From NCBI GenBank assembly GCA_965602015.1, contig OZ271918.1, positions 320,001 through 384,000 of the forward strand: a DNA stretch of 64,000 nucleotides. Reading direction: 5' to 3'. The notes beneath the pieces are model-generated. The model was not told the origin of the DNA. It saw nothing but the letters and a program-made list of their open reading frames with translations, and made no database searches. Both the position numbers and the translations under genes were made by a program. Each line of letters begins with the position of its first letter. The stretch's first letter is position 1. Below are positions 4,328 to 50,051 of the stretch, in pieces. This DNA comes from Salinispira sp. (lineage in GTDB: Bacteria > Spirochaetota > Spirochaetia > DSM-27196 > Salinispiraceae).

Positions 4328-4470
4328 TGCCCCCAAAACAGCTGATTTTCAGGCTGTAAAATGCTCTATGATAAGCAGAAACGGGCATTTTTCTCGAGCG
4401 CGCGATTGACGGCGCTTAATTCCAATCCTGTGAACAGATTACATGATTTAAATCAGCTGTTTTGGGGGCA
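4328..4470. mobile_element. MITE (143 bp) with terminal inverted repeats shared with the IS at 39534
   Basis: tgcccccaaaacagctgattt ... aaatcagctgttttgggggca form a perfect IR; non-coding; between convergent genes. Confidence 0.9.
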
Positions 4471-9577: not shown

Positions 9578-11310
9578 GCATGATCCCGGTTTTCCTCGTA
9601 GAGCCGATTAAAATCATCCTGCAAATCGAGGAAGCACCGGTATATCTCCGTTCCGAAATGCTCCTCCCCGCTGAGGCCGCTGCGGTCGTCGTGGCGCAAA
9701 ATGGCGAGGCTCTTTTTATGGCTGAACTCGTCCTTGTATTGCCGGGAAGCCCTCAGGGCGTCGTATTTATCGGCTATAGCCACAATCATGGCTTCTTTCG
9801 GGATTTCATTGCCCCGCAGCGGTCTGTTTTCCATATAGGCTGGATCGCGGGGATCGCCGATGAGCCGAACACTGCCGTCCGGCGCCATGATTCTGGGGTA
9901 GCCGGTTCCCGCCCAGGTCTGGTGGTGATTGAGGGCAATCTGGTAGGCCATTTTTAAGCGGGGGTCCGGATCCTCTTCATATGCCATCATTTGATCGAGA
10001 ATTCTGGCGCCGTAGACCGGGTGCATCTCCATCTGAAGCCGCTCTTTATCGGTGAGCTTCCTGGGGAGCTTGATAATATGGGGAATCGCCACCTTACCGA
10101 TATCGTGAATGGCCGCCACCTGTCCAATGCTCCGAATGGCCCGTTGATCCATGCCCAGGTTTTTCGCCATAAGCTCGGAGTATAGGTTCACCCTGAAGAT
10201 ATGCCTGCCGGTAATTTCATCGGAAAACTCACTGGCGGCGCAGAGTCCCATGATGCTCTGGACGAATTTTCTGTCATTTTTTATAACCAGCTGCGTGAGG
10301 GAGTTCGTCGCCCGTGCGGTGTTTACTGCTGTCTTGATAAAAACCCGGTCGTAATCCTCGATTGCCGGCAGGCGGTTGAACGCGATGAGGGATATGGGCC
10401 CCTCGTGGTAGCTAATAAAATTATGAACCGGCTCTCCAAGGAAGTCTCGAACCGAGGGAGTAAAAGAGAAATTTTCGCAAAACTGCTCCTGGCTGGAGAA
10501 TTCTTCCTGGGAGGAGGTGAACATAGCAAAGGTCTTTCTTGATAGCAGCAAGGGGTCTGCGGATTCTCCGGCCACCTGTATGGCTTTCGAATGAAGGGCA
10601 TCGTTTTCTCCGGGGCCGTATATTCTCCCGGAATGCATTCCGTCACCGTTTTCCAGGGTGATGACCACCGCCTTAAAATCGTCACCCAAAATAAGCCGGG
10701 CCAACCTGGCGAAACTGTCTCCCTCAGCCGCAAGCTCCTCCACCGAGCTGAGTATCTCGCTACTGAAACTTCGAAGACTCTGAAGGCTGGCATCGAGATG
10801 TTTCCGGGTGCTGATATCGTCGAACCAGACCAGGTATTCTCCCCGGGCCGCAGGTTTGCTTACCGTCACCGCATACCATCTATCGAGCACCGGCGAATGA
10901 CATTCATGTACGTAGCGCTCGCTCGCCTCCTGGGCATTGAGCATCAGTTCGGCAAAGTGATCCTTACAGGCCAGGTCAGTCATCCTCTTCACGCCGTGTT
11001 CTTCGAAAAGGCGGGCGGTGTTGCCCGTAGCGGCCAGAATCCGGCCCTCATCGTCCATAACGAATGCCGGGTCCCTTCGCTCCCGCGGAAGCTGGACCAG
11101 CAGATCCCGCTGGCGGTTTCGAAACTTTACGGCGGATTTGGAAAAGGCCTGGACCAGGACCGGAACCAAAAAGGGTGCGGCGGAGGAAAAGGCGGATCCT
11201 GATTGGAGTACGTTAAGGGAGATGCCCACCGCCCCAGCCAACAGGTAATTGAGGGGATCGGCGAACTCTTTGAGGACGAAGCGGCAGTAGATAAGGAATC
11301 GTGATTTCAT
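9568..11310 (-). CDS. HD-GYP domain protein (cyclic dinucleotide phosphodiesterase-like) with N-terminal membrane/PAS-like region
   Basis: TGRHIFRV, HDIGKV, HHQ.W.GTGYP and ADKYDALR motifs. Confidence 0.85.
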   Translation of the reverse strand: MKSRFLIYCRFVLKEFADPLNYLLAGAVGISLNVLQSGSAFSSAAPFLVPVLVQAFSKSAVKFRNRQRDLLVQLPRERRDPAFVMDDEGRILAATGNTARLFEEHGVKRMTDLACKDHFAELMLNAQEASERYVHECHSPVLDRWYAVTVSKPAARGEYLVWFDDISTRKHLDASLQSLRSFSSEILSSVEELAAEGDSFARLARLILGDDFKAVVITLENGDGMHSGRIYGPGENDALHSKAIQVAGESADPLLLSRKTFAMFTSSQEEFSSQEQFCENFSFTPSVRDFLGEPVHNFISYHEGPISLIAFNRLPAIEDYDRVFIKTAVNTARATNSLTQLVIKNDRKFVQSIMGLCAASEFSDEITGRHIFRVNLYSELMAKNLGMDQRAIRSIGQVAAIHDIGKVAIPHIIKLPRKLTDKERLQMEMHPVYGARILDQMMAYEEDPDPRLKMAYQIALNHHQTWAGTGYPRIMAPDGSVRLIGDPRDPAYMENRPLRGNEIPKEAMIVAIADKYDALRASRQYKDEFSHKKSLAILRHDDRSGLSGEEHFGTEIYRCFLDLQDDFNRLYEENRDHAHS

Positions 11311-11394
11311 CTACCTGCTACTATGACCTCAGCCAGTCATTCCGTCAAATTCGGGATGTAGTTTTCGGGGCATATCTGAAAGCGGTGCCTCCCC

Positions 11395-11547
11395 GCAAGA
11401 GTTTTCAATGTTCTATTACAAAAATTCTGCAAATCGGTTTTGTCCGAGTCATATCTCCGCCATCCACGTGGCATGAAAATGTCTTTCCAGGGGTGTCGCA
11501 ATCACTTTGCACAGCCTCGTATTCGCGCTGTAGCCCCAAAAACGCGC
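11395..11547 (-). ncRNA. Predicted bridge/seek RNA in the 3' non-coding end of IS copy 1
   Basis: Contains UUUUUGGGGC and AAGUG flanking a hairpin, matching the two halves of the target, and AGAUAUGA matching the predicted circle junction; transcript boundaries unknown. Confidence 0.75.
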
Positions 11548-12600
11548 TTACCCCTGTCTGGACAAACCCGCTAATGCAGGATCTTTGTAATGCTGTTCTT
11601 TCTGCAATATCCAAAATATTGCTTCTGCTAAGTGCCGTGCCACAGAGATTATAGCAACCTTATGATTTCGTTTAGTACGAACTCTCTTGTAGAGTTTTAC
11701 CGTATGTCGGTTCGCCCAATTTCTTTGATTAAGACAGGTTACATTAGCTGCTTCAGTAAGTGCCCACTTCAAGTATCGATTACATGCTTTCGATGTTCGA
11801 CCATAATGAGTTTTACCTCCGCTCGAGTGAACGCGCGGCGTTGTACCACAGTATGATGCAAAATGTTCAGCGGTCTTAAAGCGATGTATGTCTCCAATTT
11901 CATGCACAATGACTGCGCTGAGAATAAATCCGATCCCGGGAATGGATTTCACCAACTTCATTTCAGCATTTTCATCAAACGCTTCATGCATTCGTTGTTC
12001 GCAGTCGGTGATAGATTGCTTAATAAACGCGAGATTATCGAGCTTGAGTTTCATCATGGTGCGGGTATGCTCGGGGAGTTTTGGCATTACCTTCTTCATG
12101 GCTTCTGTACCTGCTTTTCCGAACAGATCGCTCACATCATTGAATCGAAACCCATATTTCTCGAACCCGGCATGAATTTGGTTCTTTTCACGTATCAACT
12201 CCTGAACGAACTGCATCCGGGTTCGATAGAGTTCTCGTTTATCACGTAATTCTCCTGGTGGAATCCACACAGTAGGCAGTGTGCCTGTTTTTTGAAGTTT
12301 ATTGAGACCTTCAGCATCGAGTTTGTCAGTTTTGTTAAACATGGCCATCATCAATTTTGACTTACCGGCATGAACCAGCAAGGGGTTCATGCCGGCCTCC
12401 TCAATCTCATCCACGATCCAGTACCAACTTCCGATCGTTTCAAGTGCGACTTCCTGTCCCGGCTCAAATTGTTGGAGGAAATCACGAATACACCCGTGAG
12501 AATGTTCTATGCGCTGTGAGGATTTCCTTCCTTTTTCGTCCTCAATTGCAGCCACGGTATACCGTTTATGGCTGTCGAGGGATATAATAATACTACTCAT
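11548..12600 (-). CDS. IS110-family DEDD recombinase/transposase
   Basis: SLDSHK, ALET and KTDKLDA (DEDD RuvC-like), SIPGIG, and SSGG catalytic serine; RBS ggaggagg. Confidence 0.96.
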   Translation of the reverse strand: MSSIIISLDSHKRYTVAAIEDEKGRKSSQRIEHSHGCIRDFLQQFEPGQEVALETIGSWYWIVDEIEEAGMNPLLVHAGKSKLMMAMFNKTDKLDAEGLNKLQKTGTLPTVWIPPGELRDKRELYRTRMQFVQELIREKNQIHAGFEKYGFRFNDVSDLFGKAGTEAMKKVMPKLPEHTRTMMKLKLDNLAFIKQSITDCEQRMHEAFDENAEMKLVKSIPGIGFILSAVIVHEIGDIHRFKTAEHFASYCGTTPRVHSSGGKTHYGRTSKACNRYLKWALTEAANVTCLNQRNWANRHTVKLYKRVRTKRNHKVAIISVARHLAEAIFWILQKEQHYKDPALAGLSRQG

Positions 12601-12707
12601 TTGGTTGTCCTCCTCCGGTATTTAATATAGACCCTGACTGGCAGGATCTCGGGGGAGGCACCGCTTTCATACCATCACTATCTAATTTTATATTCGCACG
12701 GGCTTTA

Positions 12708-38527: not shown

Positions 38528-39532
38528 GTGCGCGTCTGCCTTGTTCAGTTCGATCCCGCCTGGGAAAACCCGGAAGAAAACCGAAGACGGATACGAGCAT
38601 TAGTTGACCGGCTTTCCGGGATTGCAGCGGTGTCCCCACAGCCGGCGGATATGATAATTCTGCCGGAGATGTGCCTCACGGGGTTTACCATGAATCCTCA
38701 TGCACACGGTGCCGCTGAAAGTTCTACCGATGACTCGAGCGGCGATACTGACGGCGTAATTGTTGCCGCGACCGGCGCGACTGTCTCGGCCGATGGAGCA
38801 GCTGCTGATCACACGACCGATGCGACAACTTACGGCGCGACTGTCTCGGCCGATGGCTCGGCCGATGGAGCAGTTGCTGATCACGCGACCGATAGCGCAA
38901 CATACGGCGCGACCGATAGCGCAACATACGGCGCGACCGATATCGCGTTGGATGCCCGGGGCTTTTTTTCCCAGTGTGCCCGTTCACTGAACTGCGCAGT
39001 GGTGGCGGGATACGGAGAGTTGGACCCCGACGGAATGGCGTCGAACAGGGCGGGCGCCTGGAGCTCAAGCGGAAAGTTGCTTGCCGATTATGTGAAAAAT
39101 TATCCCTTCAGTTATTCTGGAGAAGACCGGGTTTACCGGGCCGGGAAGGACGCCTCGATGCTCAGCATCGGCGGTCTGCGCTTCGGCCTGTATATTTGCT
39201 ACGATCTGCGATTTCCTGAACATTTTCGGAGGCTTGCAGGTCAGGTTGATTGTTATCTGGTCGTGGCCAATTGGCCCCTGTCACGCATGGCCCACTGGCG
39301 CAGCCTTCTGGTCGCCCGGGCGGTGGAAAACCAGGCCTGGGTTATTGGCGTGAACCGCCGGGGGAAGGACGGCAACGGAATCCGTTACCCCGGGGTTTCC
39401 GTGGTTGTTGATCCCATGGGCGAAATATGCGCAGAGGGAGGAGAAGAAGATGAGCTTGTTTGGGCAGACATCAGCAAATCCTTCGTCGATGAGACCCGGG
39501 CTCGATTCCCCTTTCTGAATGACCGGAAATAA
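38528..39532 (+). CDS. Carbon-nitrogen hydrolase (nitrilase superfamily amidase) with a low-complexity insertion
   Basis: LPEM, YVK and ICYDLRFPE (E-K-C triad); ANWP and ARAVENQ motifs. Confidence 0.9.
   Translation: MRVCLVQFDPAWENPEENRRRIRALVDRLSGIAAVSPQPADMIILPEMCLTGFTMNPHAHGAAESSTDDSSGDTDGVIVAATGATVSADGAAADHTTDATTYGATVSADGSADGAVADHATDSATYGATDSATYGATDIALDARGFFSQCARSLNCAVVAGYGELDPDGMASNRAGAWSSSGKLLADYVKNYPFSYSGEDRVYRAGKDASMLSIGGLRFGLYICYDLRFPEHFRRLAGQVDCYLVVANWPLSRMAHWRSLLVARAVENQAWVIGVNRRGKDGNGIRYPGVSVVVDPMGEICAEGGEEDELVWADISKSFVDETRARFPFLNDRK
38774..38942 (+). repeat. In-frame nested tandem repeats (60/72/24 bp units)
   Basis: ggcgcgactgtctcggccgatgg x2 and gcgaccgatagcgcaacatacggc x2. 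Confidence 0.9.
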
Positions 39533-39568
39533 TATGAAGTGCCCCCAAAACAGCTGATTTTCCCCTCC

Positions 39569-40702
39569 TCAGGCCACCGCATAATCGGGAAGATCGATCT
39601 TCAGCGCACTCACCGGTGTCTTCCAGATCCGATGCCAGGTCTTCCATTGGCTGATGTCCAGCACCAGATGATGAACGAATGCCCGCTGTGTAAACATCCG
39701 TTTTACCAACATCAGTACCCGCCTTCGGTCAAACCCCGCAACCTCACCATGGCTGATATCGTTACGTCCGTTTATCCGATACGGCTTGAGCAGGTTATGA
39801 TAGGCGATGTAGATCATCATCCGCTCCATGCTGTTGTTCACCGATTTTGACCACTGCACACTCTGGCGGACATGACAGGATTGATCCTTTCGTATCTCCC
39901 GATCCAGGTAATTCACCGGAAACAGGGGGTTCTCAGTGGTCCTCACTACCCTCGATGAGGTTCGGTGATGGATAACCCGCCCTGCATTTTCCAACGCCGC
40001 CCAGTCCCGGTGAGCGAACAGCTCACGGCGGTATTCGAGTTTTTCATCGCTCAAGAGATAGCATGGCTTCTTCGATGAATAAGCCCTCCACCTGGGAAGA
40101 ATGGTGTTTATCACATCCCGGAAAGATCGCGCAATTTGTCCCCCTGCAATAGGATACCGGCGATTGAGCTCATCGCGCCGGCGCTTTTGCGCGGGGGTCA
40201 TCCGCCCTTTGCGCCGCATCTGCGCATAGTCGCAGGCATAGACAACCTGGCTGTCGCAACCCACCGCGAGGGTGAAGTTGTTCGGCCAGTATTGGCTGTG
40301 CACAAAGCTTTCAAACCCATCAACGGCAATATCCTCATCGATTGTATGATCATTCAATAACTGGGCCATGGCAGCGATTGCCTGACGGGACAATCGGCTC
40401 AGCCGATTGAGAATGACCTTGTCGGTGACATAAAACTCCCGGGCAATGTCGCGGATGCCGGAAGCCGAGTTGATCGAAGAGAAGATGCGCCGGTAATCGA
40501 GGCGATGATGTGCGCGATAATCGAGGTGAAACGCGCTTTCGCAGAAGTATCGACGGCAATGCTTACAGCGATAGCGCTGTGAAGAACCGAGGCGGCGACA
40601 GTGATAGTGGCCGTTTCGGACAAACCAGCATCGGCTTGATTCTCTGTCGCGATGATGCTGAGAGCAGTCCGAGTACGGACAGAATCGGGGGTAAAATGCC
40701 AT
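39569..40702 (-). CDS. Putative transposase (Zn ribbon + HTH + DDE-like domain)
   Basis: CP...C...G....QRYRCKHC zinc ribbon, GIRDIAR HTH, AVDGFESF, LSDE and YHNL.KPYR; the ORF fills the space between the IRs. Confidence 0.82.
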   Translation of the reverse strand: MAFYPRFCPYSDCSQHHRDRESSRCWFVRNGHYHCRRLGSSQRYRCKHCRRYFCESAFHLDYRAHHRLDYRRIFSSINSASGIRDIAREFYVTDKVILNRLSRLSRQAIAAMAQLLNDHTIDEDIAVDGFESFVHSQYWPNNFTLAVGCDSQVVYACDYAQMRRKGRMTPAQKRRRDELNRRYPIAGGQIARSFRDVINTILPRWRAYSSKKPCYLLSDEKLEYRRELFAHRDWAALENAGRVIHHRTSSRVVRTTENPLFPVNYLDREIRKDQSCHVRQSVQWSKSVNNSMERMMIYIAYHNLLKPYRINGRNDISHGEVAGFDRRRVLMLVKRMFTQRAFVHHLVLDISQWKTWHRIWKTPVSALKIDLPDYAVA

Positions 40703-40808
40703 GGTAATCTCCTATGAGCGGTAATCGTGTCATAGAAGACTACTGGCAAAAGAGTTATGTTGATTCGATCAGCTGTTTTGGGGGCATATCTGAAAGCGGT
40801 GCCTCCCC

Positions 40809-40961
40809 GCAAGAGTTTTCATTGTTCTATTACAAAAATTCTGCAAATCGGTTTTGTCCGAGTCATATCTCCGCCATCTACGTGGCATGAAAATGTCCTT
40901 CCAGGGGTGTCGCAATCACTTTGCACAGCCTCGTATTCGCGCTGTAGCCCCAAAAACGCGC
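40809..40961 (-). ncRNA. Predicted bridge/seek RNA, copy 2
   Basis: Same guide-like segments as 11395-11547; three substitutions seen, none in those segments. Confidence 0.75.
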
Positions 40962-42014
40962 TTACCCCTGTCTGGACAAACCCGCTAATGCAGGATCTTT
41001 GTAATGCTGTTCTTTCTGCAATATCCAAAATATTGCTTCTGCTAAGTGCCGTGCCACGGCGATTATTGCAACCTTATGATTACGTTTAGTACGAACTCTC
41101 TTGTAGAGTTTTACCGTATGTCGGTTCGCCCAATTTCTTTGATTAAGACAGGTTACATTAGCTGCTTCAGTAAGTGCCCACTTCAAGTATCGATTACATG
41201 CTTTCGATGTTCGACCATAATGGATTTTACCTCCGCTCGAGTGAACGCGCGGCGTTGTACCACAGTATGATGCAAAATGTTCAGCGGTCTTAAAGCGATG
41301 TATGTCTCCAATTTCATGCACAATGACTGCGCTGAGAATAAATCCGATCCCGGGAATGGATTTCACCAACTTCATTTCAGCATTTTCATCAAACGCTTCA
41401 TGCATTCGTTGTTCGCAGTCGGTGATAGATTGCTTAATAAACGCGAGATTATCGAGCTTGAGTTTCATCATGCTGCGGGTATGCTCGGGGAGTTTTGGCA
41501 TTACCTTCTTCATGGCTTCTGTACCTGCTTTTCCGAACAGATCGCTCACATCATTGAATCGAAACCCATATTTCTCGAACCCGGCATGAATTTGATTCTT
41601 TTCACGTATCAACTCCTGAACGAACTGCATCCGGGTTCGATAGAGTTCTCGTTTATCACGCAATTCTCCTGGTGGAATCCACACAGTAGGCAGTGTGCCT
41701 GCTTTTTGAAGTTTATTGAGACCTTCAGCATCGAGTTTGTCAGTTTTGTTAAACATGGCCATCATCAATTTTGACTTACCGGCATGAACCAGCAAGGGGT
41801 TCATGCCGGCCTCCTCAATCTCATCCACGATCCAGTACCAACTTCCGATCGTTTCAAGTGCGACTTCCTGTCCCGGCTCAAATTGTTGGAGGAAATCACG
41901 AATACACCCGTGAGAATGTTCTATGCGCTGTGAGGATTTCCTTCCATTTTCGTTCTCAATTGCAGCCACGGTATACCGTTTATGGCTGTCGAGGGATATA
42001 ATAGTATTACTCAT
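40962..42014 (-). CDS. IS110-family DEDD recombinase/transposase
   Basis: 350 aa, intact DEDD and SSGG motifs, about 8 substitutions versus copy 1. Confidence 0.96.
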   Translation of the reverse strand: MSNTIISLDSHKRYTVAAIENENGRKSSQRIEHSHGCIRDFLQQFEPGQEVALETIGSWYWIVDEIEEAGMNPLLVHAGKSKLMMAMFNKTDKLDAEGLNKLQKAGTLPTVWIPPGELRDKRELYRTRMQFVQELIREKNQIHAGFEKYGFRFNDVSDLFGKAGTEAMKKVMPKLPEHTRSMMKLKLDNLAFIKQSITDCEQRMHEAFDENAEMKLVKSIPGIGFILSAVIVHEIGDIHRFKTAEHFASYCGTTPRVHSSGGKIHYGRTSKACNRYLKWALTEAANVTCLNQRNWANRHTVKLYKRVRTKRNHKVAIIAVARHLAEAIFWILQKEQHYKDPALAGLSRQG

Positions 42015-42111
42015 TTGGTTGTCCTCCTCCGGTATTTAATATAGACCCTGACTGGCAGGATCTCGGGGGAGGCACCGCTTTCATACCATCACTTCAAAAA
42101 TAATCCCGGCG

Positions 42112-49907: not shown

Positions 49908-50051
49908 TGCCCCGAAAACAGCTGATTTAAACCCTCTAACATTTATATCAGACAGGATTTAACCGCTGTCCACCGCATGCAGAGGTAAATACTATGGTTA
50001 ATCATTCTCGTACCGTGTTTTAGCACTCGCAAATCAGCTGTTTTCGGGGCA
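49908..50051. mobile_element. MITE (144 bp)
   Basis: Perfect IR tgccccgaaaacagctgattt; internal similarity to the 22295 and 4328 copies; offset direct repeat cgttttt. Confidence 0.9.

Follow-up and report, generated by a model that had tools for sequence, protein, structure and literature searches.

What the non-coding DNA behind the transposase gene of an IS110-family element encodes, and in particular whether it specifies an RNA that reads the insertion site alone or the element's own ends as well, is the question raised by positions 11395 to 11547 of the window, the 64,000-nucleotide stretch of Salinispira sp. DNA analysed here. RNA-guided targeting by IS110 and IS1111 elements has already been published (2024), and the present element is a member of a branch without an ISfinder name in the table searched. 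A single element adds little to that picture and its value is practical: covariation backs the reading of all four guides and of both handshake positions, which makes it possible to plan a reprogramming test straight away for a branch with a CA/TG core. The element is relevant, too, to the question of whether a right-end element requires its donor loop (the bridge model) or the target loop alone (the seek model), and it illustrates clearly how one mobile element can be directed to another's ends and MITEs.

We find that the 3' non-coding end very probably encodes a bridge RNA for the element's own DEDD/serine recombinase. The preliminary description of this DNA had proposed a bridge or seek RNA, a reading that is supported by covariation of the guides with flanking DNA, by the compensatory changes seen in the stems and by a catalytic set of the IS110 type that is intact.

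The element, its recombinase and its ends

The IS110-family element is about 1.3 kb long and is found in 10 genome copies of 98.6-100% identity, one of them interrupted; excluding the cores, its non-coding parts measure 175 bp downstream of the gene and 75 bp upstream. The recombinase passes the NCBIfam IS110 model NF033542 (222.5 bits, cut-off 140), its D9, E54, D92 and D95 are invariant and S260 near-invariant among 58 aligned relatives, and D92, D95 and S260 align with the catalytic region of IS621 (the D102/D105/S241 region), for which the residue roles are taken from PMC11208158. The DEDD and catalytic serine set of the family is intact. The closest relatives of the protein anywhere have at most 60% identity, phage records give distant matches only, and the best plasmid match, at 31% identity, is a haloarchaeal plasmid protein that by eye resembles the cluster ISH18/ISHvo10/ISHvo9 in row 229 of PMC11208160. 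At least 6163 proteins, a count that includes more distant IS110s, match at E 1e-30 or better, and relatives are distributed among many phyla.

The CA core proposed earlier (TG on the transposase strand) holds at both ends of all ten copies (Table 1). Empty target repeat arms read GGGG-CA-CT, with a single copy of the core, and the short core stands at both occupied ends. Subterminal repeats of 9-18 bp are found in 63 of 68 homologues, and the end spacing of 6+2+4 = 12 bp is the same in 62 of 68, although the parse was built on that spacing. Joining of the ends would set the hexamer TTGCGG 18 bp before TATGAT, an arrangement that the integrated copy does not have, and 28 of the 68 homologues have an exact TTGACA 17 bp before the junction-spanning hexamer. 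Among sequencing runs no RNA run was listed as containing the sequence, and a search of four contig sets from one sample for a circle joint or an empty site found none; neither result is evidence either way.

The two copies in the window differ at 11484, 11465 and 11408 of the 3' end, and only four positions of that end vary when all 10 copies are compared. That the three differences avoid the guides, as the preliminary description pointed out, is true and carries no weight, since by chance three changes would spare all of the roughly 15 guide bases among 177 in some three cases out of four. A change corresponding to window position 11390, within the downstream subterminal repeat, is carried by two copies, at G000:C1 644931 and 1234165. 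Two copies form a tandem pair (L008/L009, G000:C1 about 3399650-3402550) with an identical upstream flank for both, and another (L016, G000:C1 about 1706980-1709290) is split by an element of about 1.3 kb, with two ORFs that are IS3-like by eye, and has beside it a fragment of a second IS110 that is unrelated. Homologue L205 has two tandem occurrences of the end motif at its downstream end, spaced by about 20 bp, which looks like the re-insertion of a short end segment.

Anatomy of the predicted RNA

The RNA is predicted to span about 125-140 nt of the minus strand, from about 11556 to 11434/11416, and to contain two loops, in each of which a hairpin is flanked by a left and a right guide. All segments named in the preliminary description, from CGCG at 11543-11546 through AU-UGCG at 11497-11502, sit exactly where it had placed them and lie within the range it gave for the RNA, 11395..11547; the RNA itself begins farther upstream, with an outer stem (11550-11556) that overlaps the stop codon, and the architecture described there comprised the target guides and missed the donor loop (11450-11480) and both handshake positions. 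The stop codon lies within the RNA scaffold in 79 of 108 homologues.

Table 1. Features of the element, its predicted RNA and its targets (window positions)
Feature	Position	Strand	Remarks
Target half at the insertion of the copy under study, GTTTTCGGGG	11361..11370	+	not part of a MITE
Core CA, downstream end of element	11371..11372	+	CA in 10/10 copies
4-nt terminal extension, core to subterminal repeat	11373..11376	-	would be read with the core by donor guide 11450-11456
Subterminal inverted repeat, 18 bp, downstream arm	11377..11394	.	perfect reverse complement of 12652-12669
Candidate -35 hexamer TTGCGG	11393..11398	-	-10-like TATGAT would be paired with it only across joined ends
Small 3' hairpin	11434..11447	-	probable 3' part of RNA; absent from RNAalifold consensus
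Handshake position of donor loop, AC	11448..11449	-	one of two matches in this element; covaries with core-adjacent target bases in homologues
Right donor guide AGAUAUG	11450..11456	-	same letters as own downstream end and core
Hairpin of donor-binding loop	11458..11473	-	4 consensus pairs, 3 with compensatory changes
Left donor guide AUUUUCA	11474..11480	-	in register with upstream end and core
Outer stem of target-binding module, 3' strand	11488..11494	-
Inner stem, 3' strand UGCG	11497..11500	-	pairs with CGCG; near-invariant pairs, 69 sequences
Handshake position of target loop, AU	11501..11502	-
Right target guide AAGUG	11503..11507	-	complement of core and CTT
Hairpin of target-binding loop	11510..11532	-	arms 11527-11532 / 11510-11515
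Left target guide UUUUUGGGGC	11533..11542	-	9 target bases (1 mismatch or wobble) and first core base only
Inner stem, 5' strand CGCG	11543..11546	-
Recombinase stop codon	11548-11550	-
Outer stem, 5' strand	11550..11556	-	overlaps last recombinase codons and stop
IS110-family recombinase, 350 aa	11548..12600	-	PF01548 and PF02371; D9, E54, D92, D95, S260
Subterminal inverted repeat, 18 bp, upstream arm	12652..12669	.
6-nt terminal extension, upstream end	12670..12675	-	would be read by left donor guide
Core CA, upstream end	12676..12677	+	10/10 copies
Other target half at the same insertion, CTA	12678..12680	+
Target IS of second copy, 1247 bp	39540..40786	-	377-aa ORF 39569-40702; terminal repeats in common with MITEs
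Second copy of element, core to core	40785..42091	-	at tip of a different full-length IS
MITEs of target IS	4328-4470; 49908-50051
Single repeat arms	near 2100, 22297, 45216

Homologues were found with a scaffold pattern and an alignment, a scan of genome contigs with the single protein having found no relatives. Of 210 loci gathered, 143 have a transposase homologue, 136 of these could be parsed (7 were dropped) and 108 were kept after removal of identical guide sets and of the other copies of the present element in its own genome; the ends were placed by end motif and inverted repeat, with guide and flank left unused. RNAalifold, applied to 69 of the 100 ends that could be extracted, gives a consensus of 23 pairs, 17 of them with a compensatory change, made up of the outer stem, the inner stem and both hairpins. 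In the single-sequence fold the donor loop as drawn does not form (z -2.3), and in the lowest-energy fold of a longer, 210-nt end the left target guide pairs instead with target DNA downstream of the element. An Rfam search over 11300-11700 gave no match at E up to 1.

From these parts, and from what is established for the family (PMC11187229, PMC11208158), a route of transposition can be proposed. The element would form a circle or copy whose joined ends create a promoter, the recombinase transcript would be processed at its 3' end to release the RNA, perhaps together with a shorter seekRNA of about 70 nt that contains the target loop only, and a recombinase tetramer would exchange strands at the CA core with the help of handshake pairing. 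At the level of sequence, the first loop reads the insertion site GTTTT(C/G)GGGG-CA-CT(T) and the second loop both element ends as they would lie joined in a circle. Since the guide is tuned to a terminal repeat that belongs to a different, abundant IS and to its MITEs, the element would have over 100 landing sites, most of them intergenic.

The donor-binding loop and the handshake positions

The right donor guide and the element's own end are identical in each of the 80 homologues in which both were parsed, with four sequence types, against 47% after permutation, a test in which only two positions were free to differ under the patterns used. The left donor guide is weak in the element under study (4 of 7 bases exact, two U-G wobbles, one mismatch); across homologues its triplet matches the other end at 2.31 of 3 positions against 1.51 permuted (n=67), with covariation at two to three positions. 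Registers of this guide at offsets -1 to 2 gave no signal and were set aside for the register that includes the core, which gave it.

The bases that follow the right guides appear, from their covariation, to behave like the handshake guides of IS621, from which the concept comes (PMC11208158). For the donor loop, the first of them scores 0.82 versus 0.55 (n=80), and 0.59 versus 0.24 outside the dominant target class (n=32); for the target loop the first base is invariant and the second gives a weaker signal, 0.68 versus 0.53 (n=68). The AU of the target loop would extend the right guide onto core-adjacent donor bases after strand exchange.

The presence of the donor loop and of both handshake positions argues for a complete bridge RNA and not a seekRNA only. 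It remains to weigh the view that only a short seekRNA, the target module at 11556-11488, does the work, with the protein reading the ends through the subterminal repeats and the donor loop dispensable or a relic. An 82-nt seekRNA is enough for ISEc11 (PMC11187229), an RNA with the target loop only makes up 90% of the bound RNA of CazIS110-1 (10.1101/2025.10.25.684509), the 18-bp repeats offer a candidate protein-binding site and the left donor guide is, as noted, degenerate here. Against this, both donor guides and the handshake base of the donor loop covary with DNA across the clade, the donor hairpin retains compensatory pairs, and CazIS110-1 itself required the full-length RNA for excision and integration (10.1101/2025.10.25.684509); we therefore consider a seekRNA acting alone unlikely.

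The target guides and the sites they match

At a single locus the match between guide and target is modest evidence, suggestive only: of 3000 dinucleotide shuffles made from the 177-nt end, 99 reach at least 9/10 against the left half, and in 8 there is in addition an AGTG no more than 60 nt beyond that match. It is covariation in homologues that lends decisive support to the target guides. The left guide matches its own downstream flank at 4.66 of 7 positions against 2.30 after permutation (n=76), the right guide at 3.97 of 5 against 1.68 (n=66), neither score being reached in any of 3000 permutations, and the same is true (0/3000) once the dominant target class is removed, leaving 31 and 39 loci. 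The signal spans about 6 bases for the left guide and 4-5 for the right one, and the 4-mers that the guides follow are diverse, 39 downstream and 42 upstream. When nearest relatives are compared in disjoint pairs, a test that at a median protein identity of about 70% reduces the dependence on kinship without removing it, the left guide fits its own flank better than that of its partner 31 times against 3, with 4 ties (38 pairs), and the right guide 30 times against 1, with 2 ties (33 pairs). Of the checks named in the preliminary description, covariation against the target sites of homologues comes out in its favour, with target guides that change along with their own flanks (108 loci), and folding of the aligned ends gives compensatory change in 17 of 23 consensus pairs (69 sequences).

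The single mismatch in the left guide falls, as first described, on the C/G position of the target. The C-U with which this guide ends was considered as a defect of one element and rejected, the ending recurring in 11 of 76 loci under a loose rule; under a strict rule pairing with the first core base only is found in 6 of 68, with 57 in the two-base register and 5 ties. A quick tree does not support the C-U class as a single lineage.

The right guide AAGUG is indeed the complement of CACTT, as stated at the outset, but the flank of the copy under study reads CA-CTA, and CACTT is found in only four of nine independent right flanks, whereas all nine have CA-CT. Similarly, the claim that the target loop matches the end of a MITE or IS describes 7 of the 10 copies, whose downstream junction lies at the tip of a repeat arm (3 full elements, 3 MITEs and 1 unpaired arm), and not the copy under study, which lies outside such an end. 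The target is a 10-nt motif followed by CA-CT, usually but not always at the end of a MITE or IS. Within the repeat CA-CT is present in 7 of 7 occupied arms against 63 of 112 empty ones (P about 0.02). The copy near G000:C1 1709278 has several mismatches between its site and the left target guide, and the junction near G000:C1 3400972, in a tandem duplication, has no left-target match.

The exception represented by the copy under study is informative on how the repeat is recognized. Agreement between its flank and the repeat arm extends over 10 contiguous bases and takes in 1 of the 9 that follow, and this restriction of the match to the span of the left guide favours recognition of the repeat by RNA over recognition by protein. 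If the guide matches were instead due to chance, or were captured leftovers of target DNA, with the protein choosing its site from the sequence or hairpin of the repeat, one could point to the low-complexity runs, to the 3% of shuffles that reach the left-half match and to the one repeat family that hosts 7 of the 10 copies. Guides that follow 39 downstream and 42 upstream 4-mers, nearest relatives included, and a copy outside the repeat that has only the guide-covered bases in common with it stand against such an origin, which the homologue covariation and the pair tests already largely refute and which we consider very improbable. A role limited to terminating the transposase transcript or stabilising the 3' end of its mRNA, with no guide function, might be suggested by the hairpins and by the start of the structure at the stop codon; it is scarcely credible, since a terminator would leave unexplained why bases in the loops covary with the flanks or with the distant element end.

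The repeat that the guide matches has 126 arms in the genome, and paired arms delimit 11 full-length elements (about 1.25 kb each) as well as MITEs, 29 of 130-146 bp and 4 of about 42 bp. The full-length target IS is poorly classified: its 377-aa ORF has no Pfam match at the cut-off, only sub-cut-off matches to the IS1 and ISL3 models, and the flanks of its full copies show no obvious fixed target duplication. In the window, short tandem-like repeats (35-60 nt) occur at 38773-38913 within a 334-aa ORF (38528-39532). The element resembles IS4321/IS5075 in being aimed at the terminal repeat of another mobile element, a preference that IS4321/IS5075 are reported to have. In the clade as a whole the commonest target class has CTCGCAA before the core (11 loci, with L019, L141, L142, L145, L147, L149, L199 and L205 among the carriers), and presumably resembles a REP-type repeat.

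Relationship to known IS110-family elements

By the broad description of the IS110 family, namely domains, core, target loop, donor loop and handshake guides, the element belongs there, and as far as its sequence can tell it functions like the IS621 bridge system with the layout of IS1111 elements. With IS621 and ISCro4 (IS622) (PMC11208160, PMC11208158) it shares a DEDD and serine recombinase, a core of 2 nt at each end, a pair of loops in which a left and a right guide surround a hairpin, handshake bases after the right guides and, as a prediction, a junction promoter; the pairing of its target guide with the first core base only is likewise seen in the donor guide of IS621 (PMC11208158). 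It departs from the strict IS110 group, or IS621 type, in that its RNA lies downstream of the gene and not upstream, its subterminal repeats are of 18 bp and not 2-3 bp, and its guide order is reversed, the guides reading the strand opposite to the gene whereas those of the IS621 type are on the gene strand. The core is CA (TG on the gene strand) as opposed to CT in IS621, and the two proteins are only distantly alike (E 4e-11, in the C-terminal part).

Strict IS1111 elements are described as having subterminal inverted repeats of about 11-13 bp or more and a long downstream non-coding region (PMC11187229), and the element has both, together with the guide order. The downstream non-coding region, the long subterminal repeats and the 350-aa enzyme recall ISEc11, ISPa11, ISKpn4 and IS4321/IS5075, and a top-strand complement lies 5' of a bottom-strand match as in the IS1111 type (PMC11187229). 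The joined ends, in contrast, would place 12 bp (6+2+4) between the repeats in the circle, against 10 (7+3, sometimes 6+3) in IS1111, and the GL-P----S(t)G motif of that group (PMC11187229) reads GTTPRVHSSG here, and of 66 clade proteins 44 have GT and 2 have GL; this loop motif is a soft marker, since IS621 also has GL-P. Protein identity to IS5075/IS4321 is 22-25%, and a quick tree that includes 9 references and has long branches unites the 66 clade proteins in one group (SH-aLRT 97) outside the IS5075 group (99). Given the end spacing, the GTTP motif, the low identity and, with a warning for long branches, the place in the quick tree, the element should not be filed as a strict IS1111.

A further difference from IS1111-type elements is the simple donor loop with covarying guides. 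Bridge RNAs have been predicted for 93% of the IS1111s in ISfinder (PMC11208160), and the right-end bridge RNAs of ISCARN28, ISAzs32 and ISPa11 described there likewise have target- and donor-matching loops and long subterminal repeats; many of that set are described with their donor bases in a multi-loop, whereas the present element has a simple IS621-like loop, a comparison made by description only.

These features may indicate a separate subfamily of bridge recombinases, widespread and distinct both from classic IS1111 and from the IS621-like type, marked by a TG/CA core, a 12-bp end spacing, an RNA stem that incorporates the stop codon and two registers of the left target guide (both core bases or the first only) that are scattered over the tree, although we regard this as a tentative possibility that is somewhat more likely to fail than to hold. 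If it were true, elements of the right-end "seekRNA" kind would be directly shown to keep the full donor loop and handshake pairing, and a non-CT core would be available with natural examples of retargeting. It is in any case sound to infer, as the preliminary description did, that the recombinase could be reprogrammable, which is a published property of the family, known since 2024.

We found no RNA or activity data on the clade in the literature as far as it was available, nor a title or abstract beginning tied to it, which does not imply absence from print, and the DNA motifs of the scaffold were not found in the searchable part of the supplements of PMC11208160, a weak negative. In a preprint of 2026 (10.64898/2026.10.21.760802), 86 models were used to score 32,190 bridge RNAs, and these models may include the present scaffold. 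The clade motifs NKTDKLDA and WYWI do occur in rows 433 and 442 of Supplementary Table 1 of Durrant et al. (PMC11208160), both rows without an ISfinder name.
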